Source: a virus | IMG/VR virus record: IMGVR_UViG_3300025151_008080 | Location: 6,760-70,759 of that record | Direction: 5' to 3' (one strand) | Length of the DNA stretch: 64,000 nt | Shown: piece after piece, positions 23,274 through 55,708 of the stretch | Layout: each line of letters starts with the position of its first letter | Position numbering within the stretch: the stretch's first letter is position 1 | The notes under the pieces: generated by a model | Database searches by the model: none | The model's input: the letters and a program-made list of their open reading frames with translations, nothing else | What the model was told of the DNA's origin: nothing | Made by a program: the position numbers and the translations under genes

Positions 23274-23327
23274 TTTAATTTTTGTATAATAAAGCAATTA
23301 CCTTATTTGTAGTCATCTGCGAATAAC

Positions 23328-36282: not shown

Positions 36283-36706
36283 AAAGCCTAATAAAAAGGC
36301 ACATTATGTAAGCCCTAAAAGATTTTTACAACTATTAAAAGAATATTACGAGAGTGATGACTTTGTAGACGAATTAGCAGAGTCTACGTACAAAATTGCA
36401 GTTGGTTTAAGTTATTCTCCTAATTTTATTAACTATAGTTATAAAGATGAAATGATTGGAGACGCGGTGGTAAAAATGATCGCAGCTGTAAAGAATAAAA
36501 AGTTCAATCTAGAATCTACATCAAACCCTTTCTCGTATTTTACCACTATTGCCTATCACGCATTTATTAATAGAATTAAAAAAGAAAAGAAATATAGAGA
36601 GACTATTAATGATTATCAAGAGCAGGTTTATGGTGAACTTATACAAGAAGAAAAGATGTATAAGAACGCCCCTGCGAAAGATTACGATAAAGAAATAACT
36701 TACTAA
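36263..36706 (+). CDS. Late transcription sigma factor gp55
   Basis: HYV, PNFINYSYKDEMIGDA and NPFSYFTTIAYHAFINRIKKEKK. Confidence 0.95.
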   Translation: MKPNKPKKPNKKAHYVSPKRFLQLLKEYYESDDFVDELAESTYKIAVGLSYSPNFINYSYKDEMIGDAVVKMIAAVKNKKFNLESTSNPFSYFTTIAYHAFINRIKKEKKYRETINDYQEQVYGELIQEEKMYKNAPAKDYDKEITY

Positions 36707-39584: not shown

Positions 39585-40817
39585 ATGTTTACACCGTTTC
39601 AACACAGTACTCAAAGGCTTCCATTTACTACTCCGAGAGTGGCGAACCCTCTAATGCCAGGTGTACAAAACCTTACCCAGGTAAATAAACCTAAAAAAGA
39701 TCCACACTCTGGTCCTGATCTTCCACGTGGTATTAATTTTTATGCTGATTATTCCGGGTGTGGTCATTGGAGAATGATTTGGCCAGAATTACTTTTAAAT
39801 AGCTATCAAAAACTCAACCTACAAGGTGGTACTGTGATGGTAGGTGATAAGAATTTTTATAGAGGTGTACGAACTATCCGTATACAACGACAAGCAACAG
39901 AACACCAATTAGCATATGTAAAGTGGTTAGTAGGTCTTAAGAAGGATTTTGATTTTAATATTGTATATGAGATTGATGATATAATTTTTAAAGAGGATAT
40001 ACCTCATTATAATAAATTTAGGTTTGCGTTTGAAGATCCTAACATACGCAAGTATAGTATGGAAATCATGCAATTATGTGACGAAGTTACCGTTACGAAT
40101 AAGTTCATGAAAGACTACTATACAGAAAAAACTGGTAATAAAAATATCACTATTATTCCTAATTTTATTCCAAAGTTCTGGATGGATAGATATTATGATA
40201 TAAACAAAATAAAAGAAAATTTTCAGAAGTATAAAAATAAACCAAGAGTTGTTTACTGTGGTAGTGGTGCACATTTTGATATAGATAATAATATCAAACA
40301 GAAAGATGACTTTTTCCATGTTAATGATGTAATAAGAAAAACTGTAAATGAAATACAATGGGTTTTCGTAGGTGGTTTTCCTTTATCCTTAAGAGATTTA
40401 GTTAAATCTAAAAAAATAGAATTCCATGAATGGTCATCCTTAGTAGATTATCCGAACGCTATTAGTAGACTAAACCCTACTCTATTCTACGCTCCTCTTG
40501 AAGATAATAATTTTAATAAAGCAAAGAGTGATTTAAAATTTATTGAAGCCTGTGCATTAGGTATACCAAGTATATGTCAGGATTTATGTACGTATCAGTC
40601 TGCATTTCATAAATTTAAAACAGGAGATGAATTAATTGATAAGATAAAAACATTAACTGGAGATCACAAGAAGTATGCTAAGGAAGTAAAGCAAGCTAGA
40701 AATTATATGAATAAAAGATGGATGGAAGACAATATTAATTATTATACAGAGCTTTATTCATTCAGCTATGGAGACGAGAGAAGAAAAATGTTAAATCTCG
40801 AGAACGGTATTACTTGA
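39585..40817 (+). CDS. GT-B fold glycosyltransferase embedded in the replication cluster
   Basis: ADYSGCGHWR, IQRQ, YEIDD, IPNF and APLEDNNFNKAKSDLKFIE; lies between gp46 and gp43. Confidence 0.8.
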   Translation: MFTPFQHSTQRLPFTTPRVANPLMPGVQNLTQVNKPKKDPHSGPDLPRGINFYADYSGCGHWRMIWPELLLNSYQKLNLQGGTVMVGDKNFYRGVRTIRIQRQATEHQLAYVKWLVGLKKDFDFNIVYEIDDIIFKEDIPHYNKFRFAFEDPNIRKYSMEIMQLCDEVTVTNKFMKDYYTEKTGNKNITIIPNFIPKFWMDRYYDINKIKENFQKYKNKPRVVYCGSGAHFDIDNNIKQKDDFFHVNDVIRKTVNEIQWVFVGGFPLSLRDLVKSKKIEFHEWSSLVDYPNAISRLNPTLFYAPLEDNNFNKAKSDLKFIEACALGIPSICQDLCTYQSAFHKFKTGDELIDKIKTLTGDHKKYAKEVKQARNYMNKRWMEDNINYYTELYSFSYGDERRKMLNLENGIT

Positions 40818-40849
40818 TTAAATTTGTTTTTGTGCATATAATTTAAAAA
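40814..40849 (+). promoter_or_regulatory. sigma70-like promoter of the DNA polymerase gene
   Basis: TTGATT(40814)-N17-TATAAT(40837)-N7-GTG(40850). Confidence 0.7.
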
Positions 40850-43507
40850 GTGTACAGAAACTTAGCATATATCCCTAATCAGCGCGTAATGCGATTATAC
40901 ACATGGGATGAAGATGGGGTTCGTATAGAGACAGATTGTCCATATGAGCCTTATTTTTATCACGAAACTAATGCTTCTCGTTATGACGCTATATCTCTTT
41001 ATGGTACTAAATTACGGAAAGTAATAAGTAGCAGTGAGCTAAATAGACGTAAACGCATCGAAGATCTTAATGATCATAAGATATATGAAAATATATCACC
41101 CTACCAACAATTCTTAGTCGATAGGTTTTGGGAGGTAAATGAGTCAAATGACTTTAGTAAACACCCTCTTAAGATTTGGTTTTTTGATATTGAGACATAT
41201 TCCCCAGACGAGTTTCCTAAACCTGAAGAAGCTAGTCATATGATCAACGTTATAACCATTTACGATTCTGTAGAAGAGTTATATTATACATGGGGAATAA
41301 ACCCGTACGAAACAGATCAAAAAGACGTAATATATACTCATTGTAAAAATGAAGCAGAACTATTACAGCGATTTTTAGATCACTATTGTAAGGATCGGCC
41401 TGATATTTTATCTGGTTGGAATAGTGAGATATTCGATATACCTTATATTATTAATAGAGTAAGAAACGTGTTAGGAGAAGAAGCTACACGTTTGTTTTCT
41501 CCAGTTCACTCCGAGATTATGAAGCCTATTTATCAGCGCATATATAGAGGTAATTTCGGCATGCAAACTATTAAGTACGTAGTTGAAGGAGTGTCTATGC
41601 TTGATTACTTAGATGTATATAAAACATTTAGTATGGGCATGAGAGATAGTTATAAACTTGATAATATTGCGCATATAGAGCTTGGAGAAAATAAGGTTGA
41701 TATTGGAGATACTAATCTAGCAGAACTATCTCTTAATGATTGGAAAACATTTGTAGACTACAATATTCATGATGTTAGATTGCTTGTCCGGTTAGAAGCA
41801 AAACTAATGTATATGGATTTAGCTAGAATGCTTTCGTATGTTGGTCTTACTCCTTTCAACGCTGCGTTAGGTACTATTAGTACAGTAAATGGTCGTGCTA
41901 TAGTTGAAGCGAGAAAGCAAGACCCACCAAGAGTTATACCTACTTTTATTAAGGGAGATGATCGTACAGAAAAGTATGAAGGGGCTTATGTGGGAGAACC
42001 GCAAAGAGGTTTTCAGAATAATATTATTTCTTTTGATGCAAACTCTCTATACCCTAGTGTGATGATAACTCTTAATCTTAGTCCTGAGACAAAAGTTGGA
42101 AGTATTATAGGTACACAAGGAGATAAAGTTTATATCAAAACTGTCAATAATAAAGACATAGAAATGTCTTATAAGGATTTTACTAAGTGGTGTGAGAAAA
42201 ATGAAATCGCTGTAACAAGAGCAAAAAAATTATTCTCTCAAAAGAATAAAGGAATCTTTCCTAAAATTACTGATCACTTTTATGATATAAGAAAAGGTAA
42301 AAAGAAAGAATGGACGGAGGAGAGAGAAAGAAAAAGAGAACTTACTGAAAAATTAAGTAAATTAACTGATGAAAAAGAGATAGAAGAGACTAATAAACTC
42401 ATCAAAGCATCTCAATATAAAATTGATCAATTATGGATTTGGCAGTTTACGTTGAAGATTCTTATTAATCGTATTTACGGATATTTTGGTAATAAAATCT
42501 CACAAATGGGTGATGGAGATATAGCTAGATCTATCACACTAACTGGTAGAGATGTAATCAAGCAGAGTAATATTATTCTCAAGCAATATATAAAAGAAAA
42601 AACCGGTCTTACTGAGAGTCAATTAAGCAAATCAGACCCAATTATATATAACGATACAGATAGTTCATATTGTACTATAACACCTCTTTTAGATCATATG
42701 GGTATTACTTTACATGATAATAAAAAAGTGAATCCAGAGGTCTATGACTTAGTACAAGACATAGAAGATTACCTAAACAGACATATTGAAAAATGGGCTC
42801 GTGATACATTACTCACTAAAGACCCTAGGTTTGTATTTAAGAGAGAGTCTATTTGTGATAAAGGTATTTTTCTGCAAAAGAAACGATATGTACTTCATAA
42901 ACTAGATGATGAAGGAGTCGCTTGTGATGCATTTAAATATACTGGTGTAGAGGTAGTACGTACGACTATGCCTAACGCTATCAAACCATATGTTAAGAAA
43001 ATAATTGAACATATGATTATGACTGGTGATAGAAAATCTACAAATGATCTCTTCGAAGAGACATATGAGATATTTAAGTCTCTTCCTATCAGAGATATTG
43101 CGTTTGTAATGGGTATAAAGGAGTACGAAAAGTACAGTGTGTATACTGAGGGTTGGAAAGTTAAGAAAGGAACTCCAATCCACGTAAAGTCTTCTATTTA
43201 TTATAACAAATTATTAGAACACTATAATATATCAGGTAAACATGAACTAATAGGATCTGGAGATAAAATTAGATATTTTTATACTGTTACCCCTAATAAG
43301 TTTGGTCTTACTTCTCTTGGATTCAAATACGATTTACCACCTGAATTTGAGGCAGACTTTAAAATAGACTATGAAAAGATGTTTGACAAAATTGTATATA
43401 GTGTAATAGATAGATTCTATGAGAACGTAGATTGGAAATCGTTTAAACCGGGTGAAGTTATGAATGTAGATTTATTTGATTTCTTTAAAGTAGAAGTTGC
43501 AAATTAA
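40850..43507 (+). CDS. Family B DNA polymerase gp43
   Basis: Exonuclease motifs FDIET, GWN..FD and YNIHD; polymerase motifs SFDANSLYP, KILINRIYG, YNDTDS and KKRY. Confidence 0.97.
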   Translation: MYRNLAYIPNQRVMRLYTWDEDGVRIETDCPYEPYFYHETNASRYDAISLYGTKLRKVISSSELNRRKRIEDLNDHKIYENISPYQQFLVDRFWEVNESNDFSKHPLKIWFFDIETYSPDEFPKPEEASHMINVITIYDSVEELYYTWGINPYETDQKDVIYTHCKNEAELLQRFLDHYCKDRPDILSGWNSEIFDIPYIINRVRNVLGEEATRLFSPVHSEIMKPIYQRIYRGNFGMQTIKYVVEGVSMLDYLDVYKTFSMGMRDSYKLDNIAHIELGENKVDIGDTNLAELSLNDWKTFVDYNIHDVRLLVRLEAKLMYMDLARMLSYVGLTPFNAALGTISTVNGRAIVEARKQDPPRVIPTFIKGDDRTEKYEGAYVGEPQRGFQNNIISFDANSLYPSVMITLNLSPETKVGSIIGTQGDKVYIKTVNNKDIEMSYKDFTKWCEKNEIAVTRAKKLFSQKNKGIFPKITDHFYDIRKGKKKEWTEERERKRELTEKLSKLTDEKEIEETNKLIKASQYKIDQLWIWQFTLKILINRIYGYFGNKISQMGDGDIARSITLTGRDVIKQSNIILKQYIKEKTGLTESQLSKSDPIIYNDTDSSYCTITPLLDHMGITLHDNKKVNPEVYDLVQDIEDYLNRHIEKWARDTLLTKDPRFVFKRESICDKGIFLQKKRYVLHKLDDEGVACDAFKYTGVEVVRTTMPNAIKPYVKKIIEHMIMTGDRKSTNDLFEETYEIFKSLPIRDIAFVMGIKEYEKYSVYTEGWKVKKGTPIHVKSSIYYNKLLEHYNISGKHELIGSGDKIRYFYTVTPNKFGLTSLGFKYDLPPEFEADFKIDYEKMFDKIVYSVIDRFYENVDWKSFKPGEVMNVDLFDFFKVEVAN

Positions 43508-43530
43508 AAATTGTATACTACAATACGTGT

Positions 43531-43890
43531 ATGGATATAATTACGTATGTAGATAGTATAGGTAGAACTTGTTTTGGAGAGTTAGTTGAAGAGACTAGTG
43601 ATTTTGTCAAAGTCAAGGCTCCTGCGATGATTATGGTTACTCCGAATGATCCGAGTAATATGAAAGTTGATGTGATGCCTTTGTTTTTTACTGAATTCTC
43701 TAATGGAGAATTACCTATTTTCAATTATAAAACTACACAGATTGTAAAAGTCGATGTAGATATTTCAGATAAAATCTTAGTGCACTACGAGGCTAAGATT
43801 AATGTGAAACAGGAACCGAACCCTGAACCAGTACCAGAAACCTTGGAAGAAGAAGTACCTGAAATTGCCTTGTTCGAAGAAAGTAAGTAA
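43531..43890 (+). CDS. Hypothetical small beta (Sm-like) protein with acidic tail
   Basis: 119 aa; own promoter TTGCAA-N16-TACAAT-N6-ATG. Confidence 0.6.
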   Translation: MDIITYVDSIGRTCFGELVEETSDFVKVKAPAMIMVTPNDPSNMKVDVMPLFFTEFSNGELPIFNYKTTQIVKVDVDISDKILVHYEAKINVKQEPNPEPVPETLEEEVPEIALFEESK

Positions 43891-43891
43891 T

Positions 43892-44980
43892 ATGTCTAAA
43901 CTCGCTGATAAAGTATTTGCTAAATTGCAAAAATTAAATCAAAACGCAACAACACTAGAAAATAATACTCTTAGTAATGTCACTGATTGGATTGATACTG
44001 GTTGTTTTGTATTAAATTCTATCCTTTCAGGTTCTATTTATGGTGGTGTACCTAAAGGTAGAATTACAATTTTTGGTGGGGAATCCGGATGTGGGAAGAC
44101 ATTCATTCTCAATAAGATTTTAGCAAATGCTCAGCGAAAAGGCATGATACCTATTATTTTTGATACAGAGGTTGCTGTTGAAACAGAAGGTGCTAAAAAC
44201 GTCGGTTTAGATACTAGTAATGTAAAGTATGTTCCAGTAGATACTGTTGAGAGTTGTCGTAATCAAATGATGGCTTTTCTTGACGATGTCGAAAAAGAAC
44301 CTGAGTTACATGGTAAGTTTATTATCTCTATCGATTCGTTAGGTAACCTTGCGTCGGAAAAAGAAATTAACGACGCGCATTCGAACAAAGGAGCCATGGA
44401 TATGGGACTACGAGCTAAGCAATTAAAATCCATGATGCGTATGATAACGTTTAAAGCTGCAGTAACTGGTACAACAGTTATATGTAGTAATCATACCTAT
44501 GCTGATCCTGGAGCTTTACATCCAACGCTAGTAAAGCAACAAGCTGGTGGTTCTGGTCCTATATACATGGCTTCTATTCTTGTTCAAATGGCTGCAAAGA
44601 AAGAAAAGACAGACGCTTCAAACGAAAGCGATGAAGCGATTTCAGAGAGTAGAAATTATTCTGGTGTTACATTGAGAATGTTAACAGTAAAAAATAGATT
44701 TATACCTGCTTTCTTACAAGGAGAGGTGTACTTAAACTTTAAAACTGGTTTAGAGAAATATTCCGGTCTAAAAGATATCGCTGTAGCGCACGGTATTATA
44801 CAACAAAACGGTTCTACGTATGCAATGGGAGAGCAAAAACTAGGTTATTACAAGAATTGGCGCAATAATGATGAAGTATGGAATAATATTCTTCCTAAGA
44901 TAGAATCATCTATAAATGAAAAGTACCGGTATGGTAAGTCGTTAGACGAACCCACTATTTTAGAGCAAGATAATGAGTAA
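43892..44980 (+). CDS. uvsX: RecA-like recombinase UvsX
   Basis: WIDTG..LN, GESGCGKT, FDTE, IDSLG, DMG.RAK, GGSG and KNRF; ATG at 43892 preferred. Confidence 0.93.
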   Translation: MSKLADKVFAKLQKLNQNATTLENNTLSNVTDWIDTGCFVLNSILSGSIYGGVPKGRITIFGGESGCGKTFILNKILANAQRKGMIPIIFDTEVAVETEGAKNVGLDTSNVKYVPVDTVESCRNQMMAFLDDVEKEPELHGKFIISIDSLGNLASEKEINDAHSNKGAMDMGLRAKQLKSMMRMITFKAAVTGTTVICSNHTYADPGALHPTLVKQQAGGSGPIYMASILVQMAAKKEKTDASNESDEAISESRNYSGVTLRMLTVKNRFIPAFLQGEVYLNFKTGLEKYSGLKDIAVAHGIIQQNGSTYAMGEQKLGYYKNWRNNDEVWNNILPKIESSINEKYRYGKSLDEPTILEQDNE

Positions 44981-45689
44981 AGCAGTAGTACCTATTTCAG
45001 GAGGGTTAGATAGTTCGGTAATCTTAAGTTTAGCCGCCGCGGCTCATGATGAGATTTATGCGCTAACGTATGATTATGGTCAAAAGCATACAAAAGAAAT
45101 TATATATGCTGGCATACAAATTGATAATTATGATAATATCGAAGAGCATAAAGTTATTGATATAAGTTTCTTTAAAGATATTGCCCCAACATCCTCTCTA
45201 ACTAACAATAAAATAAAAGTAGCACATGCTCGAGATGTACTAGGAGATGCGCAAACTGTAAATTATGTTCCGTTCCGTAATATGATGATGTTATCTATTG
45301 CATGTTCGTATGCAGAAGCAGTCGGAGCTGATACGGTATATCATGGTTCTGCTCTTGTAGACAGTCAAGCAGGTTATTGGGATGGAAGTAAAGAATTCTT
45401 AGAACAAATTAACAACGTTACTAGCTTAAACAGAAAGAATAAAATACAAATAAAAGCCCCACTAATTAAACTATCTAAAAAAGAAATTATACAATTAGGT
45501 ATAGATAATAACGTTCAGTTTGAAGATACCTGGACGTGTTACGAAGGAGAAGAGAAAGCATGTGGTTACTGTACTGCTTGTAGCTCTCGCATACAAGGGT
45601 TTTTACAAAATAAACTTATTGATCCGGTTGAATACAAACGAGAAGATATTCCATGGGTGAGAATAGTTGATTTACATATGAAAGGTTAA
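44973..45689 (+). CDS. queC: 7-cyano-7-deazaguanine synthase
   Basis: SGGLDS, YGQKH, YVPFRN, APL and TWTCY......CGYCTAC..R. Confidence 0.95.
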   Translation: MSKAVVPISGGLDSSVILSLAAAAHDEIYALTYDYGQKHTKEIIYAGIQIDNYDNIEEHKVIDISFFKDIAPTSSLTNNKIKVAHARDVLGDAQTVNYVPFRNMMMLSIACSYAEAVGADTVYHGSALVDSQAGYWDGSKEFLEQINNVTSLNRKNKIQIKAPLIKLSKKEIIQLGIDNNVQFEDTWTCYEGEEKACGYCTACSSRIQGFLQNKLIDPVEYKREDIPWVRIVDLHMKG

Positions 45690-45703
45690 TATAATATAAA
45701 ATT

Positions 45704-46348
45704 ATGTGTGGAATATTTGGATCAAACGATATAGAAACATTTAGAAAACTATATACGAAAAACCTAGATAGGGGTAATTTTGTCAGATCAGTAACGATGT
45801 TATTTCCAGCGGGAGTAAAAAGTAATACAAACATTACTACGACATATGAGGTAGACTTAGATAAAAAAATACCTGAAAGTAAATATTGTGTTTACTATTT
45901 AGGACATGTACAATCTCCGACCTCTTCAGTAAGAGAGTTCGATGCAAAAACTTCTCACCCGTATGATTTAAATAGTCAATATCTAGCGCATAATGGTGTT
46001 TTAGAAAACGATAGAGAGCTAATCGATAAAATGAAACTAGAAAACTATAATGATGTAGATAGTAGTATTATTTTACCATTAATAGAAAAAGCTGGTTTCG
46101 TTGAAGGTATTGAAATGTTACAAGGAACGTTTGGATGTTGGTATTATAACGCCAGTGACGCAACGTTAAAGATTTTTCGCAGTGGTTCTACCTTATTTAT
46201 AGACCATAAGCATAGTAGCTTTACATCAGCAAGTCAAACGGGATACAACTTAGTGAATGAAGGGGAGATCCTAGAATATAACTTCACTAGTAGAAAATTT
46301 TATAAATCAAATACTTTTAAATTAAATTCTGTTCCGTTCTTTCTATGA
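45704..46348 (+). CDS. Class II (Ntn) glutamine amidotransferase
   Basis: N-terminal MCGIFG, RG, LGH...PT, HP, AHNG and DS; own promoter TTGATT-N17-TATAAT-N8-ATG. Confidence 0.85.
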   Translation: MCGIFGSNDIETFRKLYTKNLDRGNFVRSVTMLFPAGVKSNTNITTTYEVDLDKKIPESKYCVYYLGHVQSPTSSVREFDAKTSHPYDLNSQYLAHNGVLENDRELIDKMKLENYNDVDSSIILPLIEKAGFVEGIEMLQGTFGCWYYNASDATLKIFRSGSTLFIDHKHSSFTSASQTGYNLVNEGEILEYNFTSRKFYKSNTFKLNSVPFFL

Positions 46349-47043
46349 AAACGCTTATTGCGACAGCTACTAAATATAATCAAAAACAATATGAGACTGT
46401 ATCAAAGCTACATCAAAGCTTAAGACTGCACAGTAGTTATTATGATTGTATACCTACGTATGAAAATAAAGATGGTTTATGCAAGGTTTACAATAGATAT
46501 TTAGAACAATATTCAGATGATTACGAGTGTATAATATTCGTACATGATGATGTATTTATTGACAGTGTTTCATTCGTTGATACAATCAAATTATTATTTG
46601 CAAATAATTATAGTGTTGTCGGTTTAGCTGGTGGTAGTAATTTAAAAATAAAAAAACCATGTTTATGGCATTTACTAACTAACAAAAATACTCAATCAGG
46701 TATAGTTTCTCACTATTTAAGAGAGTTTAATTCTCCTGGCGCGTACGTGCCTACTATTTTCGGACAAACCCCTAAACCGGTTGTATTATTAGATGGTTTG
46801 TTTTTAGCGTTAAACACAAAAGATATTAAAAAACACAATATAAAGTTCGACGAAAACATTGCAGGTTTTCATCACTATGATTTAAAATTTAGTATTGATT
46901 GCTATCTAAAAGGTTTAAAGTTAACTACTGCACCAATACATGTTATCCACGAATCTCCTGGCTTGACTAATATGACAAAAGAGTATATAACATCTGAGGA
47001 ATATTTGTACAAATTCTTAGAATCACATGGTAACAGAAAATAA
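46345..47043 (+). CDS. GT-A glycosyltransferase (GT2-like) coupled to the amidotransferase and helicase genes
   Basis: GL..VYN, IFVHDDV, VVGLAG, LDGLFLA, FDE...FHHYD and H.SPG; ATGA overlap with gat. Confidence 0.8.
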   Translation: MKTLIATATKYNQKQYETVSKLHQSLRLHSSYYDCIPTYENKDGLCKVYNRYLEQYSDDYECIIFVHDDVFIDSVSFVDTIKLLFANNYSVVGLAGGSNLKIKKPCLWHLLTNKNTQSGIVSHYLREFNSPGAYVPTIFGQTPKPVVLLDGLFLALNTKDIKKHNIKFDENIAGFHHYDLKFSIDCYLKGLKLTTAPIHVIHESPGLTNMTKEYITSEEYLYKFLESHGNRK

Positions 47044-48367
47044 AGATTATTTAGATTTAGATTTAAATTTACTTGAAAAAATTATATTCAAGAATTGTTT
47101 AGATAATGAGGTTTATTTATCTACAATTATTGATGCATTACACTTCAAGTTCTTTAAAGATAAAGATATACAACAAATTGTAAAACTAATACAAGCTTTA
47201 TATAAAAAGAATAATTCAAGACCATCAAAAACTGAACTTGAGTTATACTTGAATAGTGATCAATTAAAGTCCCATTATGAAAAATGTAAAACATTAACTA
47301 ATAATCTTGAAAGTGATTTAGATGAAGATCAGCTCTATAAGTATACCGAAAGATTTTTACAAGAGCAAGCAGTATATAGTACATTCTTAGACATTATTGA
47401 TAGTAAGGAGCGCAATGTACAAAACATATATGATAAATTTACTAAAGCATGCAATATATCGATTAATACAAATGTAGGTCATGATTATTTTTATGATTTA
47501 GAAGATCATATTACTAATTTGACTGTAAAAGAATCAAAAATTAAATCCGGGTGGAATTGGTTGGATGAAAAATTTGGAGGTGGTTTTCAAGAAACTGGTA
47601 AGAGTTTGTATATATTCGCTGGACAGTCAAATGTAGGTAAATCTATATTTCTTAGCAATGTAGCTACTAATGTAGTAAAGAGTGGAAGAAATGTTTTGAT
47701 TATATCTCTTGAAATGTCAGAGATGATATACAATAAGAGAATTACATCATGTTTAACTGGACTACCTATTAATCATCTGAAAGACCACGTTAGTACATTA
47801 AGAGAAAAAGTACAAACGTTTAAAGCCACAACCCCTAGTTCAAATCTAGTAGTAAAAGAGTTTCCACCTAACAGTATTACAGCGTCTCAAATAGAAGGTT
47901 ATATTAAAAAACTTATAAATAAAAAGTTTAAACCTGATATTATTGTTCTTGATTATTTAAATCTACTCGCAGGTACAGGTAATAACACATATGAAAAGAT
48001 TAAACATATTGCTGAGGATGTAAGAGCTTTAACTTACAAGTTTGAATGCCCTATAGTAACTGCAACTCAATTAAATAGAACAGGTTATAATACTAATGAC
48101 GCTCCAGAGCTAGATAGTATAGGAGAGAGTTATGGTTTAGGAGCTACAGCAGATGGTATTGTGAGTATATGGCGGACAGAGGAAGATGAAGAAGATAATG
48201 CGATCCATATCAAAGTAATCAAGAATAGAGATGGGGATAATTTTAGTAGTACAAGATTAGCTATCGATTATAACACCCTTACTATTACTGAGAATACTGA
48301 TTTGAATATCAATCAAGATATAAGTAATGCTGAAGATGATGCTGTCAATTCCGGGAGGGAGGTATAA
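47027..48367 (+). CDS. Replicative DnaB-like helicase gp41
   Basis: GQSNVGKS, SLEMSE, VKEFP, LDYLNL, TATQLNR, ESYGL and KNR.G. Confidence 0.93.
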   Translation: MVTENKDYLDLDLNLLEKIIFKNCLDNEVYLSTIIDALHFKFFKDKDIQQIVKLIQALYKKNNSRPSKTELELYLNSDQLKSHYEKCKTLTNNLESDLDEDQLYKYTERFLQEQAVYSTFLDIIDSKERNVQNIYDKFTKACNISINTNVGHDYFYDLEDHITNLTVKESKIKSGWNWLDEKFGGGFQETGKSLYIFAGQSNVGKSIFLSNVATNVVKSGRNVLIISLEMSEMIYNKRITSCLTGLPINHLKDHVSTLREKVQTFKATTPSSNLVVKEFPPNSITASQIEGYIKKLINKKFKPDIIVLDYLNLLAGTGNNTYEKIKHIAEDVRALTYKFECPIVTATQLNRTGYNTNDAPELDSIGESYGLGATADGIVSIWRTEEDEEDNAIHIKVIKNRDGDNFSSTRLAIDYNTLTITENTDLNINQDISNAEDDAVNSGREV

Positions 48368-48376
48368 ATACTACAA

Positions 48377-49261
48377 ATGGCTAAAGATGAAATAATCTTT
48401 ACCGACTTAGATTTAGACGGTTCATGTAGTTATTTAATACATGTCTGGTTAACCGGTAAAAAACAAAAGGTTGTAACTCTCAAGGTAAGTGATCTCAGAG
48501 AAAAGTTTCTCCAGTGGTTAACTTCTAATAAAATAGAGAGCTATAAACGTGTATATTTTTATGACTTAGATACAACTGAAATAAAAGATCTAATTGATAA
48601 AGATAATGTATACATATTTGATCATCATAAAACTCATAATGCAGAATATAAAAACGCAACTGCAATAATAGAAAAGGATTGTCCTTCTTGTAGTAAGCTT
48701 TTATACAAACATTATAAAGATAAGATAAACCTTACTATGGAGCAAAAGCATTTAATTGCTTTAGTTAATGATTATGATTGCTATGAATTACAGTTTCCAG
48801 AAAGTAATAAACTTAATTTCTTATTCTGGTATAAGAACGGCAATAAGCTCCAAAATTTTATAGATGATTTTGAACATGGTTTTCACGGATTTACTACTGA
48901 ACAGAATAAAATAATTAGCTTTCATTTTTACAAATATAAGAAAGTAGTAAAAGATCTAAATTTATTTGAAACAAATCTTAATATCGCTTCTAAAGAGTAT
49001 AGATTTGTTAGTGCATTTGTAAGTGAATATGTAAACGATGTAGGCCAACATATTATAGATACAACAAACTGTGATGTATGTATAATGATTAATCTAAAGA
49101 ACAATAGAGTGTATTTGCGAAAAAACAAAAATTGTGATTTAGATTTAGGTAAGTTTGCAAAGAAAGTATGTGATGGTGGAGGTCATGAATATGCAGCGGG
49201 TGGAAATTTAAATGATAACGTACTTGCGCTAAGTAAGCAATTTGTACCAATTAATGGATAA
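48377..49261 (+). CDS. DHH/DHHA1 phosphoesterase
   Basis: D.DLDG, DL, FDHH, DYD and GGGH..AAG; TATAAATA at 48363-48370. Confidence 0.85.
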   Translation: MAKDEIIFTDLDLDGSCSYLIHVWLTGKKQKVVTLKVSDLREKFLQWLTSNKIESYKRVYFYDLDTTEIKDLIDKDNVYIFDHHKTHNAEYKNATAIIEKDCPSCSKLLYKHYKDKINLTMEQKHLIALVNDYDCYELQFPESNKLNFLFWYKNGNKLQNFIDDFEHGFHGFTTEQNKIISFHFYKYKKVVKDLNLFETNLNIASKEYRFVSAFVSEYVNDVGQHIIDTTNCDVCIMINLKNNRVYLRKNKNCDLDLGKFAKKVCDGGGHEYAAGGNLNDNVLALSKQFVPING

Positions 49262-49529
49262 TCCATACAGCACACTAGAACGTAAAGATAATATACACAA
49301 ATTTTTAAGTTTGTGTAGCTTTATATCTATCTGCGAAAACAAAAAAGTAAACTTAGCTAATGTATTTTTATTAGTTCTAAAAGAAAAAAAATATAGAGAA
49401 TTGTTCAAAGAGTCGCTAATATTAGAAAGTAATTTTGAAGTAGTGAAATTATTTTTACAGCACGATCCTTTTTTATATAAGAGTAAATATATAACAAAGT
49501 TTTTGAAGAAAAATTCTCTTAATATATGA
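49254..49529 (+). CDS. Hypothetical protein
   Basis: ORF overlapping both neighbours; ATG at 49254. Confidence 0.55.
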   Translation: MDNPYSTLERKDNIHKFLSLCSFISICENKKVNLANVFLLVLKEKKYRELFKESLILESNFEVVKLFLQHDPFLYKSKYITKFLKKNSLNI

Positions 49530-50182
49530 ACGATAAGAATACATTAACACCATACGAGAAAAACATTTATAATTTTTATTTGAGATCGACGAGGCAGGAT
49601 AAAGGGTTTACTCCGCGTAAAAATTTTAACGAAATTACTCCAGAGCTTTTTAACCAAATTAAAACCATTTCTAAGGTAATAAAAAGCAAAAAACTTAACC
49701 CTCGGTTATTTTTCGACGCTCCATACAAGATATGGCTTGAGGAACATGTACGTTTTGAATTTTATAGCACCTTCAAGGCTGTCTCTACATATAAGAAATA
49801 TGTTTCTTTTATTGAGTTGACTGAACCCGATCATGAACATAACGCGTATTCTCTAAAAGAAGGGATGAAATTTATATACTCAAAATGCGTTGACAACAAT
49901 TTAACTAACGTTTATGATTATCTCAATGTTCAGAGCGGTGTCTATCCTGATTTCTTATTAGATTTAAAAGATAGAAATATATCTATTTACTGTCTAATTG
50001 CGCTAAATGTAAAAGAGGAACATATTAATCTAGAGACGAAAGTAGTTGATTTCCTCTACAAAGACTTTTATAATATTTTAAACAGCTTGAGATCGAAGTA
50101 TGTTTATTCGAAAAAAATCAAGCCGTTGAGTATAAAACTAATAAAAACTATTGATAAAATATTAAAGAATAATGACAACTAG
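49526..50182 (+). CDS. Hypothetical protein, possibly gp59-like helicase loader
   Basis: 218 aa basic/aromatic helical protein directly upstream of gp32, the T4 gp59 position. Call rests on size and synteny only. Confidence 0.35.
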   Translation: MNDKNTLTPYEKNIYNFYLRSTRQDKGFTPRKNFNEITPELFNQIKTISKVIKSKKLNPRLFFDAPYKIWLEEHVRFEFYSTFKAVSTYKKYVSFIELTEPDHEHNAYSLKEGMKFIYSKCVDNNLTNVYDYLNVQSGVYPDFLLDLKDRNISIYCLIALNVKEEHINLETKVVDFLYKDFYNILNSLRSKYVYSKKIKPLSIKLIKTIDKILKNNDN

Positions 50183-51020
50183 TATGTTTGAATCGATTAG
50201 AGGTGCGTTGAGTAAGTCAACGCAGGCTAGCAACAATAGTACAAGTAATATTATGCGGTTAAGACCTGGTAATACTTATGTTGTACGACTTGTTCCGTAT
50301 GTGAAAGATCCGAGTAAAACGTTCTTTCACTACTACTCACACGGGTGGGTTAGTGAAGCGACTGGTCAATACCAGAGTGCAATTAGTCCACAAACTTGGG
50401 GTGATCGTGACCCTATCGCAGAAGCTAGGTTTCGTATTACTCGAACTGGCTCTGAAGATGAAAAAGAAAAAGCAAAAATGCTTAATCGGAAAGAGAACTG
50501 GCTAATCAATGTCTTTGTTGTAAAAGATAATGAGAATCCAGAAAACGAAGGTAAGGTAAAGATTCTTCGCTTCGGTCGTCAATTGCATAAGATTATTATG
50601 GAAGCGATTGAAGGAGAGGATGCGGAAGAGTTTGGTGAAAAGATTTTTGATCTAACTGACTCTGGCTGTAACCTTCGTATTAAGGTAGAAGAGCAAGGTG
50701 GTTTTCCTACTTATGTTAGCTCTAGGTTCGCGTCTTCGTCTGATATTGACGCAACTCCAGATAGTGTTTATTCAGAAGCGTTTGATTTGGAAAATGTATT
50801 TCCTGTCAAATCTTATGATGAACTAGAAGTAATGCTTAACGAGCATTATTATAATAAGCGAGAATCAGATACATCTACTGCAGTAGTATCTGAGACAGTA
50901 ACAAGTACTACTACTCCTGATACTGATGACGATGACGATCTAGACTTCGATACAGTATCAACCCCTGCAGGTAAGGTTGACGAAGATAAAGTAAAAAATC
51001 TTCTCGACTCTTTAGATTAA
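50172..51020 (+). CDS. Single-stranded DNA-binding protein gp32
   Basis: VRLVP, YYSHGW, SPQTWG..DPI, NV.VV.D..NPENEGKVKI.RFG and Y..S.F, with an acidic C-terminal tail. Confidence 0.92.
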   Translation: MTTSMFESIRGALSKSTQASNNSTSNIMRLRPGNTYVVRLVPYVKDPSKTFFHYYSHGWVSEATGQYQSAISPQTWGDRDPIAEARFRITRTGSEDEKEKAKMLNRKENWLINVFVVKDNENPENEGKVKILRFGRQLHKIIMEAIEGEDAEEFGEKIFDLTDSGCNLRIKVEEQGGFPTYVSSRFASSSDIDATPDSVYSEAFDLENVFPVKSYDELEVMLNEHYYNKRESDTSTAVVSETVTSTTTPDTDDDDDLDFDTVSTPAGKVDEDKVKNLLDSLD

Positions 51021-51029
51021 TAAAAACAC

Positions 51030-51057
51030 GGGGAGGGAAACCTCCCCTCTTTTCTTT
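51030..51057 (+). terminator. Intrinsic terminator after gp32
   Basis: GGGGAGG-GAAA-CCTCCCC followed by TCTTTTCTTT. Confidence 0.85.
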
Positions 51058-51063
51058 ATTTTT

Positions 51064-51450
51064 ATGGATGAAATAGATAATGAAACAAAAATGTTCTTGC
51101 ATCAAATGAATGCAATGGCACATGGTTTAAATAAAGATATAGTACAAAAAAGCGCTACTATGCAAAATATTCCTTTGACTAAGGAAATTTATAGCGATCA
51201 TAAACCAAGACCACAACAACAGCATATACCGCAGCAACCAGCTCCGCAAATTTCTCCTAACGTACAGCCACAAGTTAACGTACAGTCTCAGGATCTTACC
51301 CCTCTTATTAATAGGGTAACATCTTTAGAAAAACAAGTAACTAAATTTGTTAATCTCATTGAACGTAATGTTGCAAAAAACGCAAAAGAAATTAACATAC
51401 GTATTAAATTAAACGAGAAAACAAATAATGACACTAAAGATACAGAATAG
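51064..51450 (+). CDS. Hypothetical Gln/Pro-rich coiled-coil protein
   Basis: 128 aa ORF. Confidence 0.6.
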   Translation: MDEIDNETKMFLHQMNAMAHGLNKDIVQKSATMQNIPLTKEIYSDHKPRPQQQHIPQQPAPQISPNVQPQVNVQSQDLTPLINRVTSLEKQVTKFVNLIERNVAKNAKEINIRIKLNEKTNNDTKDTE

Positions 51451-52162
51451 GGATAGCTTTGTACGAAATTTTTTACATCCTATCAGTAGGATCGCTACTA
51501 CTGTTAGTCTTAAGACTAATGATCAAGAATCTAAGATCTCTACTGTAGTACATAATAGTTCTAATATTTTTCTTAACGCGACGTATAATGTACGAATACA
51601 AGACTTAGAAAATAATGTCCTTTGTTTACCGGATGTAAACAAACTTATTAAAATTTTTCAATGTATTGAACAAGAAGATATTTCTGTTACAGTAAATAAA
51701 AATTGTATTAATTATACCGACAAAAATTGTAGGTTTAAGTATCATTTATTTGATGAGATTTTTAACAAAGGAGAATCATTTGATTTCAATAAAATACATC
51801 AAATAGAACCATGGACTAAAATTGAGCTTACTAAAGAGAAAAATAGTAGTATACTGAAAGCGTTACCTTTTGTAACTGAAACGAGTAAGTTATATTTACG
51901 ACAAGAGGCAGACTCTATTTACGCAGAACTTACTGATAAAAAGATACAAAACGTAGATAGTTATACAATATTACTCACTGATGAATATACTGGAGGTAAT
52001 ATTACTGAAGAACTTATACTTGATATAGAGCTGTTTAGACTTATATCTACATTGAATTTCGATAAGTATAATCTATATATTAATAATGAGTTTAAAATGC
52101 TCAAGTTAGAATTTAACCTTGATAATTGTAATTTAATTTTTGTAAGTACAAGCTATAAGTAA
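51428..52162 (+). CDS. Sliding clamp gp45-like
   Basis: 244 aa with a two-repeat beta/alpha pattern (LCLPDVNKLIKIF, INYT....FKYHL); replication context. Confidence 0.55.
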   Translation: MTLKIQNRDSFVRNFLHPISRIATTVSLKTNDQESKISTVVHNSSNIFLNATYNVRIQDLENNVLCLPDVNKLIKIFQCIEQEDISVTVNKNCINYTDKNCRFKYHLFDEIFNKGESFDFNKIHQIEPWTKIELTKEKNSSILKALPFVTETSKLYLRQEADSIYAELTDKKIQNVDSYTILLTDEYTGGNITEELILDIELFRLISTLNFDKYNLYINNEFKMLKLEFNLDNCNLIFVSTSYK

Positions 52163-52452
52163 TGAAAAATAAAGTTACAACTTGCGGTTATTTTATTAAA
52201 AGACTTCGAGATAACGGGTATACAGTAAATAGAATTTTTGATAACTATTGTCCCTCCGACCCGAGAAGGTGGACCATCATGGTCGATCCGGAAAACTGCG
52301 CTCTATTTATTACATGTTATATGAATAAAGACTGGTACGGTGATCTGATGTTTGAGTTTAATAACGGTCAGCAATTTAAAAACTTTCAGCTTAAAACAGA
52401 CAGCATGGAAGTAATAATAACAAAACTAATAGAAAAAAACATTAATCCTTAA
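52162..52452 (+). CDS. Hypothetical protein
   Basis: 96 aa, translationally coupled (TAATG). Confidence 0.65.
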   Translation: MKNKVTTCGYFIKRLRDNGYTVNRIFDNYCPSDPRRWTIMVDPENCALFITCYMNKDWYGDLMFEFNNGQQFKNFQLKTDSMEVIITKLIEKNINP

Positions 52453-52733
52453 TGCCACGTAAAACTAGTAAACCAAAAAACTTCGATAATCTACTCAAAT
52501 CTAATATAAGTGCAGTAGAGTCTATATCAGGAAAAGACAGAAAAAATATATCTATTATTCATGATTATCTATCTGAATATCTTAAATCTTTTGTTTTACT
52601 TGGTTATGACACAACAGGAGAAAGTGTAGTTGTAATTGCTGGAAAAACAGCTCAAGATTATGACGCGATTGAAACATTATTGAAAAGAGTGAGTAATATT
52701 GACTTTTTTAAAGAAATACAGGAAGAAAAATGA
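52452..52733 (+). CDS. Hypothetical protein
   Basis: 93 aa, translationally coupled. Confidence 0.65.
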   Translation: MPRKTSKPKNFDNLLKSNISAVESISGKDRKNISIIHDYLSEYLKSFVLLGYDTTGESVVVIAGKTAQDYDAIETLLKRVSNIDFFKEIQEEK

Positions 52734-53626
52734 ACAAAATTATTGTTATTGGTAACGGTTATATAGGTAGTAAATTAGCTAAAGATTTAATCGAAGACAA
52801 AAACGAAGATATACTTCATCTATACAAGTATGATTATGATAACCCTAAAGTATTAAACGATACTTTATTTAATACCTTACATTCTTATTTGAATAATAAC
52901 AAAAAGAATTCCGAGGAACCAATATGGGTAGTTAATTGTGTAGGTTATACAGGTAAGCCAAACGTTGATGCTTGTGAAGAAGAAAAAGAAAAATGCTGGG
53001 CTTTGAATGTTACATTCCCTACATTATTAGCAAATGTTTGTTTGAAGCATAACGTAAAACTAATTAATGTCAGTTCTGGTTGTATTTACTCCGGTGATAT
53101 GGTTTACGATGAAGAAGACTGGCCTGACTTTGGAGTTGATAGTCCTGATAGTAGTTGGTATAGTCGTACTAAGCATGCAGCAGAACTTAGTCTTAACGCT
53201 TTTCCTAACGTATATACCTTAAGAATACGAATGCCTATATGTGCTGACTTTAATTCAGGTAAAAACTATCTCACAAAGATCTTAAAGTATAATGATCTAT
53301 TACAAGAAGTAAATTCTAAAACTGTAATACCTGATCTCTTAAAGGTAATATATAAGATAATTAACATGCAGGATATACCAACTGGAATTTACAATGTAGT
53401 AAATCCAGAACCTATAGATACAAAATCAGTTACTGAAATTTTAGATAAAAATGGTATGTGGAATCCGCATTGGAAATTTATTGACTATAACGATCTTAAA
53501 AAACATATTAAAGCTAATAGATCGAATTGTAAGCTTTCTACTGAAAAATCTCGATTGTATAATATCGAATTACAGCCAGAAACTGCCTCTTTAGAAGCAT
53601 TGTTTGAGAAACAAGATGAAGAATAA
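52730..53626 (+). CDS. NDP-4-keto-6-deoxyglucose epimerase/reductase (RmlD-like, NRS/ER type)
   Basis: G.GYIG, GYTGKPNVDACE, SSGCIY, YSRTK, LRIRMP and NYLTKI. Confidence 0.85.
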   Translation: MNKIIVIGNGYIGSKLAKDLIEDKNEDILHLYKYDYDNPKVLNDTLFNTLHSYLNNNKKNSEEPIWVVNCVGYTGKPNVDACEEEKEKCWALNVTFPTLLANVCLKHNVKLINVSSGCIYSGDMVYDEEDWPDFGVDSPDSSWYSRTKHAAELSLNAFPNVYTLRIRMPICADFNSGKNYLTKILKYNDLLQEVNSKTVIPDLLKVIYKIINMQDIPTGIYNVVNPEPIDTKSVTEILDKNGMWNPHWKFIDYNDLKKHIKANRSNCKLSTEKSRLYNIELQPETASLEALFEKQDEE

Positions 53627-54626
53627 AAATATTTTAATTACCGGTGGTCTAGGTTTTATAGGTAGCCACTTCGCAGAGTATATACATGAAGTAGCTGATA
53701 ATTGTACAGTAACAATTATTGATAAAAAAAGCTATTGTGTATCTCGTGAAACAGAAGAATATATATGGAACCTATACAATTCAAAGAAGTCAAACGGTTT
53801 AAGTATACTTTATAAAGATATTAATTTAATTAATGATATATCGACCTATGATTATATTGTAAATTTTGCAGCTGAATCTCATGTTGATAATAGCATTAAT
53901 GATGGAGACCCGTTTATGACCTCAAATGTTAACGGGGTATATAATTTACTATCAATGTTAAATGATAAACAAAGATTCGTGCAAATAGGTACGGATGAAG
54001 TTTACGGTTCGTTATCTTTTGAAGCTGAAAGTTCTATTGAGTCAGACACATTATACCCTAGTTCTGTATACTCTTCGACGAAAGCTGCTGCCGATCTAAT
54101 AGCTTTATCTTTCCACAAAACTCATAAAAGAGATATCGTTATTACAAGATGTACAAATAATTTCGGTCCTAGACAATATCATGAAAAATTAATACCAGTT
54201 GTAGTTAAAAAGGCGCTAGCTGATGAACCAATCCCAGTATATGGAGATGGTCGAAACGTACGACAATGGATTTATGTAAAAGAACATTGCGAGAAAATTT
54301 ATAATATAATGCTACACGGACAATCTGGAGAAATTTATAATATAGCTCCGCAATATGAATCCGAGATTGATAATCTCACTATTGTGAAAGAAATATTATC
54401 TGTACTTGAAAAACCGGAAAGTCTTATTTCTTTTGTAACAGATAGAAAGGGCCATGATTTTAGATATTCTTTAAATGATAATAAATACACGACAAATCTC
54501 ATGAAAGGTAAGCCTGTACAGTTAGAATTTGAAACAACTAAAAAAACATTTGCAGAAGATTTGAGAAACACTATAATGTGGTACAAACAAAATTATGACT
54601 GGTGGGGAAAAAAATCTTATAATTGA
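53616..54626 (+). CDS. rmlB: dTDP-glucose 4,6-dehydratase
   Basis: TGGLGFIGS, NFAAESHVD.SI, TDEVYG, YSSTKA, NNFGP.Q..EK, YGDG..VR.W and DRKGHDFRY. Confidence 0.93.
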   Translation: MKNKNILITGGLGFIGSHFAEYIHEVADNCTVTIIDKKSYCVSRETEEYIWNLYNSKKSNGLSILYKDINLINDISTYDYIVNFAAESHVDNSINDGDPFMTSNVNGVYNLLSMLNDKQRFVQIGTDEVYGSLSFEAESSIESDTLYPSSVYSSTKAAADLIALSFHKTHKRDIVITRCTNNFGPRQYHEKLIPVVVKKALADEPIPVYGDGRNVRQWIYVKEHCEKIYNIMLHGQSGEIYNIAPQYESEIDNLTIVKEILSVLEKPESLISFVTDRKGHDFRYSLNDNKYTTNLMKGKPVQLEFETTKKTFAEDLRNTIMWYKQNYDWWGKKSYN

Positions 54627-55551
54627 CGGCAATAACTTGCTGTATCGTGTTTTTTGGACTAGTAATTTTAAAATAACTGAATCTGACTCTCCGGGTCAGA
54701 TTTTTTTATTCTTAAGATCTTTAAAGTCTTATGTAGATAAATATAAACCTAAAAACATTTACTGCGCATGGGATAAGAAGCTAGATTGGCCATGTACTAA
54801 TTTTCGTCGAGAAGCAACTGCAGTTGAATATAAAGCAGGTCGGGATGATGAAAAGTTTAAAGATGTGTTTAAGCAATGTGATTATATAATTGAACTACTT
54901 ACATACTTAGGGGTAAAAAATATATACCCTAAGCGAATGGAAGCAGATGATGTTATGGCATGGTTAGCTAAGACTCTACCTGGGGAAAATATTATTGTTA
55001 CAACTGATAAAGATTTGTTGCAAACTATTAACGAAAATACTAAAGTATATAGTCCTATAAAAAAGAAAGAAGTATCGCTCAATAACTTTACAGATTTTAC
55101 CGGGGTAGAAAAAGAATATTATATGTCTTATAGAGCAGTTACTGGTGATAAGTCAGATAATATACCAGGTATTCCTCGATATGGTATAAAAAAGTTTCTT
55201 AAATTAGAACACAAAATTGGTACGTTCGGAGATGAAACCCACGCAATATTACTCAGTGAAAGCATTACAGAGGAACAATTTGAAATATATAAGCGCAACT
55301 GGGAATTAATGAATCTACAAGTTGGTTATACATATTATGATGATGAAATACCAGCATACGAAAACCAAGTAGAACAATTAAAAAAATTATCTGCTAATTT
55401 TACTAAATTTACAGAAGAAGCTAAAAAACTCGATATGTGGAATATTGTAAGAAATATTACATCATGGAGAGAGTCTTTTAACAACAATAAAAATATACTA
55501 AATATTATTAACAAAGCGATTAAAAATGTCACACACACCCAATCAACCTAG
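54595..55551 (+). CDS. 5'-3' exonuclease / T4 RNase H-like
   Basis: IIDGNNL, WD, YKAGR, EADD, DKDLLQ and GDKSDNIPGI. Confidence 0.92.
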   Translation: MTGGEKNLIIDGNNLLYRVFWTSNFKITESDSPGQIFLFLRSLKSYVDKYKPKNIYCAWDKKLDWPCTNFRREATAVEYKAGRDDEKFKDVFKQCDYIIELLTYLGVKNIYPKRMEADDVMAWLAKTLPGENIIVTTDKDLLQTINENTKVYSPIKKKEVSLNNFTDFTGVEKEYYMSYRAVTGDKSDNIPGIPRYGIKKFLKLEHKIGTFGDETHAILLSESITEEQFEIYKRNWELMNLQVGYTYYDDEIPAYENQVEQLKKLSANFTKFTEEAKKLDMWNIVRNITSWRESFNNNKNILNIINKAIKNVTHTQST

Positions 55552-55708
55552 ACCAATCGTCGGACCTTCAGGACAAACAGTTCGACCAGTAATTAGAGAA
55601 ATTCGAGTAGGAAATGAAATACGAACTGAAGCTCATTATACAGATCCTGGTACCGGTCAATTTATAACTAAGATTCCTATTTCTACGCGTAAAGTAGATG
55701 ATAAGTGA
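55526..55708 (+). CDS. Small hypothetical protein
   Basis: 60 aa overlapping both the RNase H and primase gene ends. Confidence 0.6.
   Translation: MSHTPNQPRPIVGPSGQTVRPVIREIRVGNEIRTEAHYTDPGTGQFITKIPISTRKVDDK

Follow-up and report, generated by a model that had tools for sequence, protein, structure and literature searches.

The DNA of Flavobacterium phage immuto_2-6A has been reported to contain 345,000 formylated prequeuosine 1 deoxynucleosides (fdPreQ1) per million nucleotides with no peak for 2'-deoxyguanosine (dG), and the same report treats DpdA as a signature of deazaguanine modification of DNA (PMC10516641). Archaeosine (dG+) is placed in the DNA of Enterobacteria phage 9g through Gat-QueC and DpdA1 (Hutinet et al. 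2019, PMC6884629), and phage T4 glucosylates hydroxymethylcytosine using gp42 and the a-gt and b-gt glycosyltransferases. The present analysis concerns a 64,000-nucleotide stretch of viral DNA (the window; bases 6760-70759 of the 70,759-base linear record IMGVR_UViG_3300025151_008080 of IMG/VR, judged approximately 35% complete), in which genes for 7-deazaguanine synthesis occur together with two glycosyltransferase genes and rhamnose-type sugar genes in and around a T4-like replication module. The initial annotation had read these genes as a hypermodification system that adds a sugar to a deazaguanine base in DNA, and had invoked archaeosine synthesis by Gat-QueC. A deazaguanine in the DNA, genuine transferases and sugar genes, and their fixed positions were all supported, whereas the archaeosine route was not. 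The best overall explanation, held with moderate confidence, is replacement of guanine by a DpdA3 route, with an acceptor other than DNA somewhat more likely than DNA for both transferases.

The presence of a 7-deazaguanine in the DNA of this phage is well supported by homology to the measured immuto_2-6A system. The first 7 kb of the same record, upstream of the window, encode QueF, a P-loop kinase, a small open reading frame (ORF), a DpdN-like formyltransferase and the C-terminal end of a DpdA3 protein, which are respectively 60%, 65%, 74%, 70% and 82% identical to their counterparts in a complete relative, G001 (a 200,819-base record with terminal repeats, found among the loci recovered with the glycosyltransferase termed GT-B below). 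QueF (L093 1686-2600) matched TIGR03138 at 3.8e-74 with 250 bits, below the cut-off of 293, and the formyltransferase lies at L093 202-783. In G001, QueF, the kinase, the formyltransferase and a 272-residue protein stand in one row, the last adjoining the formyltransferase gene and recognised as a DpdA by a tblastn search with it as query. This protein shares 46% identity with the immuto_2-6A protein annotated as a DNA guanine transglycosylase and approximately 40% with proteins of the Campylobacter CP220 group, also matches phrog_19058 (5.1e-44), and by this homology is assigned to the DpdA3 family. The neighbouring formyltransferase is 40% identical to that of immuto_2-6A, DpdA3 is full-length in relatives, and the order DpdA-formyltransferase-kinase-QueF is that of immuto_2-6A. 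The combination of DpdA3, DpdN, QueF and genes for prequeuosine 0 (preQ0) thus matches the immuto_2-6A set, in agreement with the earlier assignment of the que genes to DNA modification. Three of the preQ0 genes lie outside the replication module:

29251-29994, minus strand, QueE (7-carboxy-7-deazaguanine synthase, a radical S-adenosylmethionine (SAM) enzyme; NCBIfam QueE 1.2e-12 and weaker, all below cut-offs)
30162-30644, minus strand, QueD (6-carboxytetrahydropterin synthase, 6-pyruvoyltetrahydropterin synthase (PTPS) fold; PF01242 2.4e-16, TIGR03367 2.6e-9)
30692-31726, plus strand, GTP cyclohydrolase FolE2 (PF02649 4.9e-72; NF010200 278 bits, above the cut-off of 215)

QueD and QueE fall below the NCBIfam cut-offs, yet are clear by Pfam or homology, QueE being 83% identical to its G001 homologue. 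QueC, the PP-loop ATPase that serves as preQ0 synthase and is encoded within the replication module, matched TIGR00364 with 172 bits, above the cut-off of 150. The FolE2 protein (30692-31726) is 97% identical to that of two distant relatives (L067/L068, 1685-2716) whose neighbouring genes are only 30-70% identical, and in G001 a type I FolE (162502-163149) occupies the same slot, a pattern suggestive of recent cassette exchange or of a gene derived from the host.

In the proposed route, FolE2, QueD, QueE and QueC would produce preQ0, with a stand-alone glutaminase, Gat, probably passing glutamine-derived ammonia to QueC. QueF would then reduce preQ0 to prequeuosine 1 (preQ1), the DpdN-like formyltransferase would convert preQ1 to formyl-preQ1, and DpdA3 would exchange this base into DNA in place of guanine. 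Judged from this gene set, formyl-preQ1 is most likely the modified base, ahead of archaeosine. The neighbourhood of DpdA3 was surveyed in 58 IMG/VR loci, two of them close relatives of G001, which together contain 470 ORFs falling into 111 clusters. Recurrent in at least three loci were 27 of these clusters, among them those of the kinase (48 loci), QueF (43), the formyltransferase (16), FolE, QueD, QueE-like proteins and a phosphoribosyltransferase. The kinase gene, of a 'thymidylate kinase'-like P-loop type, accompanies DpdA3 in CP220, in immuto_2-6A and in the present clade (L093 1127-1702; L094 15478-16002; L202 12813-13355), and the immuto_2-6A cluster also contains a phosphoribosyltransferase. 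The two together hint at a nucleotide-level step in systems that are said to act after replication.

Gat is a stand-alone class II (Ntn) glutamine amidotransferase that probably serves as the glutaminase partner of QueC and is probably not tied to the adjacent GT2 glycosyltransferase. Its predicted nucleophile Cys2, together with Asn97-Gly98 and Asp119, does not vary across 28 aligned homologues. Among solved structures it is closest to the glutaminase domain of asparagine synthetase (1.2e-6), an enzyme that couples such a domain to a PP-loop synthetase, and QueC gives weak matches to Asn_synthase. A profile search of 1.84 billion representatives returned 513 proteins at E 1e-10 or better, and among the top 150 family representatives there was no fused Gat-QueC form; these were mostly stand-alone proteins of 200-240 residues, along with shorter fragments and two proteins of 298 and 325 residues. 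In Vibrio phage 6E35.1a, whose DNA is reported to carry 15% dPreQ1, the deoxynucleoside of preQ1 (PMC12028318), a full-length Gat homologue of 26% identity follows queF and queC. A second lineage (G016) retains gat near queC although its GT2 gene has moved elsewhere. Taken with QueF and DpdN, which form the formyl-preQ1 set, the stand-alone nature of the family makes the archaeosine route unlikely.

The genes for Gat and QueC are separate, with an extra gene between them in 14 of 21 relatives. This gene, which the window lacks, is GMP-reductase-like (L052 16059-17012; G001 147879-148835, the latter on the minus strand at L088 7879-8835). It matched NF003966 at 1.7e-94 with 317 bits against a cut-off of 344, and G001 also encodes a xanthine/hypoxanthine-type phosphoribosyltransferase. 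Enzymes of both types are described as belonging to the toyocamycin and tubercidin nucleotide routes (bioRxiv 10.64898/2026.04.15.718813).

The window has a GC content of approximately 31% and encodes the T4-type proteins portal, terminase, gp19, gp15, uvsW, gp46/47, gp43, uvsX, gp41, gp32, RNase H and primase. Marine and seawater sequencing runs from 12 studies contain portions of the stretch. Its DNA polymerase shares only approximately 30% identity with any cultured-phage homologue, those of cyanophages and Pelagibacter phage HTVC008M being nearest, and megablast of the region against cultured phages gave no match. The source is an uncultured marine T4-like phage, and the region is its replication and recombination module, laid out as follows (genes given without further evidence were assigned by Pfam, NCBIfam and PHROGs):

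34840-56720, plus strand, whole block from uvsW to primase, all ORFs co-oriented and in the same order in G001
36706-37752, plus strand, gp47
37749-39569, plus strand, gp46
39585-40817, plus strand, GT-B, the first glycosyltransferase, between gp46 and gp43
40850-43507, plus strand, gp43
43865-44980, plus strand, uvsX
44973-45689, plus strand, QueC (PF06508 2.8e-59)
45704-46348, plus strand, Gat (GATase_6 7.7e-9)
46345-47043, plus strand, GT2, the second glycosyltransferase (PF13712 3.1e-14)
47027-48367, plus strand, gp41
48377-49261, plus strand, DHH protein
50172-51020, plus strand, gp32
52730-53626, plus strand, protein resembling nucleotide-rhamnose synthase/epimerase-reductase (NRS/ER; solved relative 4qqr)
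53604-54626, plus strand, RmlB-like protein (TIGR01181)
54595-55551, plus strand, RNase H
55698-56720, plus strand, primase
63423-63998, minus strand, RmlA (glucose-1-phosphate thymidylyltransferase), cut by the window end (TIGR01207 2.3e-46, profile positions 97-277)

The gene order first read from the sequence, running from gp46 through GT-B, gp43, uvsX, queC, gat, GT2 and gp41 to primase, stands by Pfam, NCBIfam, PHROGs and structural comparison, apart from one label: the ORF called a clamp (51428-52162) matched none of Pfam, NCBIfam and PHROGs and had no meaningful counterpart among structures already solved. The common orientation and the four overlaps described for the block also hold on ORF coordinates (uvsX/queC 8 nt, gat/GT2 4 nt, GT2/gp41 17 nt, rmlB/RNase H 32 nt), as do the placement of folE2, queD and queE at 29-32 kb and of rmlA at 63.4 kb, where profile matches or homology were found. 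The parallel drawn with T4, whose modification genes were said to occupy the gp41-uvsX-gp43-gp46/47 neighbourhood, agrees with the T4 gene order (a-gt, 47, 46, 45, 44, 62, regA, 43, imm, 42, b-gt, segA, uvsX, 40, 41). The late-promoter motif TATAAATA occurred 18 times against 23.8 expected and is uninformative. The C-terminus of Gat is PFFL, whose two Phe residues do not vary across the 28 homologues, and gp43 carries LFDFF nine residues from its end; a shared C-terminal docking peptide modelled on this gp43 tail was considered and set aside, as nothing alike was found in GT-B, GT2 or the G001 DpdA3.

Conservation was assessed in loci recovered with each transferase. Of 204 stretches matched in the GT-B search, 202 were relatives, and the best 80 loci were analysed; these include near-duplicates (L067/L068, L054/L057, L043/L045), so that independent numbers are smaller than the counts. 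For GT2, a single protein used as query returned no related loci, and an alignment used as query gave at least 575 relatives among at least 598 stretches, of which again the best 80 loci were analysed. Neighbour counts include only loci whose record extends far enough to show the neighbouring gene. On this basis, gp46 lies directly upstream of GT-B in 58 of 58 loci and gp43 directly downstream in 49 of 49, queC follows uvsX in 24 of 24, both gat and GT2 follow queC in 21 of 21, and the GMP-reductase-like gene lies between queC and gat in the 14 of 21 noted above. Median and minimum identities were 72% and 51% for GT-B, 81% and 45% for gp43, and 71% and 40% for gp46, and gat and GT2 are near 55%. 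Among the GT2 loci, 63 of 68 have gat as immediate neighbour, 38 of 43 contain queC and 67 of 71 contain gp41. The five exceptions to gat-GT2 adjacency all come from another lineage, in which GT2 stands beside the baseplate hub, approximately 4.5 kb from a phosphoesterase-kinase-QueF group and approximately 5 kb from rmlA and a PfkB kinase. At the uvsX-gp41 locus of that lineage (L191, G016 40001-46741) the order is uvsX, carbamoyltransferase, queC, two ORFs, gat, one ORF, an NDP (nucleoside diphosphate)-sugar epimerase/dehydratase and gp41, so that sugar enzymes have gathered at queC-gat twice, with different genes. The NRS/ER gene was found in nine of ten relatives' records, the tenth being an 11.7-kb fragment, and rmlB follows it in eight of nine loci; in the distant G006 the primase gene comes next, with no match to rmlB or RNase H.

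These positions differ from those in the glycan island of the same window (7889-26841, 19 kb), which encodes GT6, GT8, GT2, GT25 and DXD transferases, methyltransferases, radical SAM/SPASM enzymes and a CMP-sugar synthase. Within the island, 14 of the 25 main ORFs lack a match in G001 and just three show one of 60% or more, whereas in the replication module each of the four sugar genes has a G001 match, at 55-72%. The synteny counts and the turnover of the island together indicate that the contrast originally described, with the island flexible and the core sugar genes fixed, is real. At the edge of the island, adjoining a clamp-loader-like gene, lies a DUF366 protein (PF04017, 3.5e-20; 7271-7858) that is 91% identical to its G001 homologue and is among the most conserved proteins of the window.

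Both transferases are genuine, as first called, and soluble, GT-B by phrog_7162 and its predicted model and GT2 by PF13712 and its model. GT-B has a Pfam match below threshold (E 0.0094) and matches phrog_7162, 'glycosyltransferase', at 1.1e-19. Its model has a mean predicted local distance difference test (pLDDT) score of 88.7, with residues 1-45 disordered; Foldseek gave BshA (3mbo, 1.7e-11) as well as WaaG, PglA and MshA, and VIA gave Z 24-25 to GT4 enzymes and Z 21 to tetrahydrobiopterin glucosyltransferases. The rows listed for this model comprise GT4 enzymes and include neither T4 AGT nor BGT. On this model, GT-B is predicted to be a GT4-like glycosyltransferase of GT-B fold. Its matches in 50,697 phage records were weak only (22-26% identity), those in bacterial and archaeal genomes comprised one close match on a contig of a metagenome-assembled genome and seven weak generic GT4 matches, and a protein-atlas search returned only viral clusters named 'glycosyl transferases group 1'. 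The GT2 model (pLDDT 94.5) has a GT-A fold, with majastridin-UDP (2qgi, 8.6e-12) as best solved match, followed by TarP, RmlT and AvpGT, and the motif H67-D68-D69 is invariant in 56 homologues, which identifies GT2 as a predicted GT-A-fold glycosyltransferase of PF13712. No match to it was found in the 50,697 phage records.

The 6-deoxysugar genes are likewise genuine, RmlA and RmlB by profile matches and NRS/ER by solved relatives. The NRS/ER label given at the outset is appropriate, in that the protein is closer to the Arabidopsis 3,5-epimerase/4-reductase 4qqr (9.1e-31) and to 7jid, titled UDP-L-rhamnose synthase (3.4e-17), than to the bacterial RmlD 1vl0 (5.2e-8). These similarities support 52730-53626 as a putative NDP-4-keto-6-deoxyglucose 3,5-epimerase/4-reductase of the rhamnose synthase type; among the 50,697 cultured-phage records it had one weak match. 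The RmlB-like protein (dTDP-glucose 4,6-dehydratase) matched TIGR01181 at 2.9e-95 with 319 bits against a cut-off of 365, and RmlA is full-length in G001 (PF00483 3.5e-54). RmlC (PF00908) is absent from the records G000, G001 (complete), G002 and G005. Its one homologue was found in G003 (G003:C1:41260-41784; 146 bits) and contains an in-frame TAG. With RmlC missing and an NRS/ER-type enzyme present, RmlA, RmlB and NRS/ER would suffice for NDP-L-rhamnose, the predicted activity and the carrier nucleotide both being read from homology.

It is above all in the acceptor of the transferases that the reading is conditional. A conserved acceptor other than DNA, for instance the host envelope or a protein of the virion, is somewhat more likely than DNA. 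Several observations weigh against this preferred reading of DpdA3-type guanine replacement with glycosylation directed elsewhere. As regards the transglycosylase, the DpdA3 of the window's own record is represented only by its last 65 residues, which lie beyond the window where the contig breaks off; searches of six records with the Pfam families TGT (tRNA-guanine transglycosylase, PF01702) and DUF6610 gave no usable match, so that the DpdA3 call rests on homology to a family whose activity is reported as not reconstituted in E. coli (PMC10516641). Immuto_2-6A has no Gat, and Gat may alter the product, for example towards archaeosine. As regards the sugar, GT-B is very strongly conserved, with a minimum identity above that of gp43, and its family is basic (isoelectric point 8.0-9.3 in 48 members), which favours a DNA-linked role; GT2 is translationally coupled to gat; and other sugar enzymes occupy the queC-gat locus of the second lineage.

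The chief alternative is that one or both transferases glycosylate the deazaguanine, either as the free base before DpdA3 acts or in DNA afterwards, with rhamnose as the likely donor sugar. This was judged possible, though improbable. In its favour are the fixed positions of the sugar genes among replication genes (the 58 of 58, 49 of 49, 21 of 21 and eight of nine loci counted above) set beside the turnover of the glycan island, the conservation of GT-B at the level of core replication proteins, the overlap of GT2 with gat in the queC operon, and the circumstance that, where GT2 has moved, it lies near a kinase-QueF group and the queC-gat locus it left holds a carbamoyltransferase and an NDP-sugar epimerase/dehydratase. 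T4 houses a-gt, b-gt and gene 42 in the same module; huimycin and the dapiramicins, preQ0-derived bases with N2 sugars, offer a chemical precedent; and no hydroxymethyl-pyrimidine enzyme that could supply an alternative handle was found in the 233 G001 ORFs scanned with Pfam (E 1e-4; from 257 called ORFs, leaving out 10 at piece borders and 14 already known). A form of the product to be considered, also doubtful, is a preQ1-derived base in DNA bearing L-rhamnose on the side-chain nitrogen, which would give a queuine-like shape, or on N2 as in huimycin.

Against glycosylation of the base, formyl-preQ1 lacks a hydroxyl group, no glycosyltransferase lies near DpdA3 in immuto_2-6A or CP220, and GT2 is unmatched among the phage records searched. 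None of the 27 recurrent DpdA3-neighbour clusters is a glycosyltransferase by Pfam, although 8 of the 27 have no Pfam match. Among five DpdA3 records that are more distant, both GT-B and GT2 are missing from three (48%, 78% and 86% complete), the remaining two being one fragment with GT2 and another with GT-B. Sugar genes are plentiful in these genomes, the RmlA gene is sited away from the module and next to a sulfotransferase, the C-terminal peptide of neither transferase is like the gp43 tail, and GT2 lies away from the queC-gat locus in one lineage. Further, all of the genes are core to one clade, with the result that co-occurrence cannot separate the hypotheses. A literature search found no paper describing a glycosylated 7-deazaguanine in DNA. 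Nothing ties either transferase to DNA or to deazaguanine, and DNA glycosylation stays an attractive but tentative hypothesis.

Far less probable is that the transferases and rhamnose genes act on a small molecule, the product being a free deazapurine or pterin glycoside comparable to huimycin, dapiramicin or biopterin-glucoside, or act on nucleotide-level intermediates. The structural relatives of GT-B do include BshA, MshA and the tetrahydrobiopterin glucosyltransferases, a phosphoribosyltransferase occurs in both G001 and immuto_2-6A, and the GMP-reductase-like gene of many relatives is of an enzyme type described for toyocamycin and tubercidin; however, similarity of this kind is general among GT4 folds, many other enzymes rank above the pterin ones, and the presence of DpdA3 indicates that the base is destined for DNA. 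We know of no example of a phage-made deazapurine glycoside, which also counts against this alternative. That the que genes merely boost the host's supply of queuosine for tRNA, with unmodified DNA and the sugar genes as unrelated accessories, is scarcely credible, since although some phages carry preQ0/preQ1 genes and no Pfam TGT match was obtained here, the DpdA3 homologue and DpdN-like formyltransferase are present in the immuto_2-6A order, DpdA is considered the DNA-modification signature cited above, and there are no queuosine-family phage tRNAs (the window has no tRNA genes and G001 only those for Leu and Thr).

On the preferred reading, DpdA3-type guanine replacement would extend to a widespread oceanic T4-like lineage, which gains a defined gene set of DpdA3, DpdN, QueF, the preQ0 genes and Gat. 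Were the transferases to act on the base, the system would constitute a new class of DNA hypermodification and the first sugar-bearing purine analogue described in DNA, with a bearing on restriction evasion, sequencing bias in marine viromes and DNA-labelling enzymes; if they do not, a sugar pathway held as tightly as replication genes still needs explaining. Also encoded in G001 (L081-L091) are a 596-residue carbamoyltransferase, a class II ribonucleotide reductase and a second protein of PTPS fold, along with ribosomal protein S21, an Hsp20, a ClpB-like ATPase and two proteins that resemble pilins and carry N-terminal methylation motifs.

Among described systems, huimycin is a preQ0-derived compound with N-acetylglucosamine on N2, added by the transferase HuiG, and dapiramicin A carries a disaccharide containing 6-deoxyglucose, for which RmlB and an RmlD-like enzyme without RmlC are predicted (PMC7439116; bioRxiv 10.64898/2026.04.15.718813); PF13439, a GT4-type family, is assigned by the preprint to glycosyltransferases of the huimycin cluster family. 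The present locus resembles these clusters, as so described, in combining preQ0 genes with a GT4-type glycosyltransferase and, in the case of dapiramicin, in the predicted use of RmlB and an RmlD-like enzyme without RmlC. It differs in that huimycin and dapiramicin are free actinomycete metabolites bearing an O6-methyl group, and the likeness to the phage GT-B is one of shared GT4-type fold and family. With T4 the locus shares co-oriented modification genes and glycosyltransferases within the 47-46-43-uvsX-41 module; however, the slots are not identical, GT-B here matches GT4 enzymes and GT2 is of the GT-A type, and no thymidylate-synthase-family match indicative of a gp42-like hydroxymethylase was found in the scanned G001 ORFs (E 1e-4), the window having ThyX only. 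Phage 9g is alike in pairing a class II glutamine amidotransferase with QueC and in directing a 7-deazaguanine into DNA, but here Gat is a separate gene, the transglycosylase is DpdA3 rather than DpdA1, and QueF and DpdN point to preQ1 derivatives.

The closest system is that of immuto_2-6A, whose DNA chemistry has been measured whereas the present clade is known from genes alone. Both have QueD, QueE, QueC, QueF, DpdA3 (46%), the formyltransferase (40%), the P-loop kinase and a genomic phosphoribosyltransferase, and both keep the local order DpdA-formyltransferase-kinase-QueF. In the present phage the pathway genes occupy three separate places of a T4-like genome, FolE2 stands in place of FolE, and a stand-alone Gat follows QueC, with the GMP-reductase-like gene at that point in many relatives. 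Two glycosyltransferases and rhamnose genes lie among the replication genes here, whereas none lies near the immuto_2-6A cluster.

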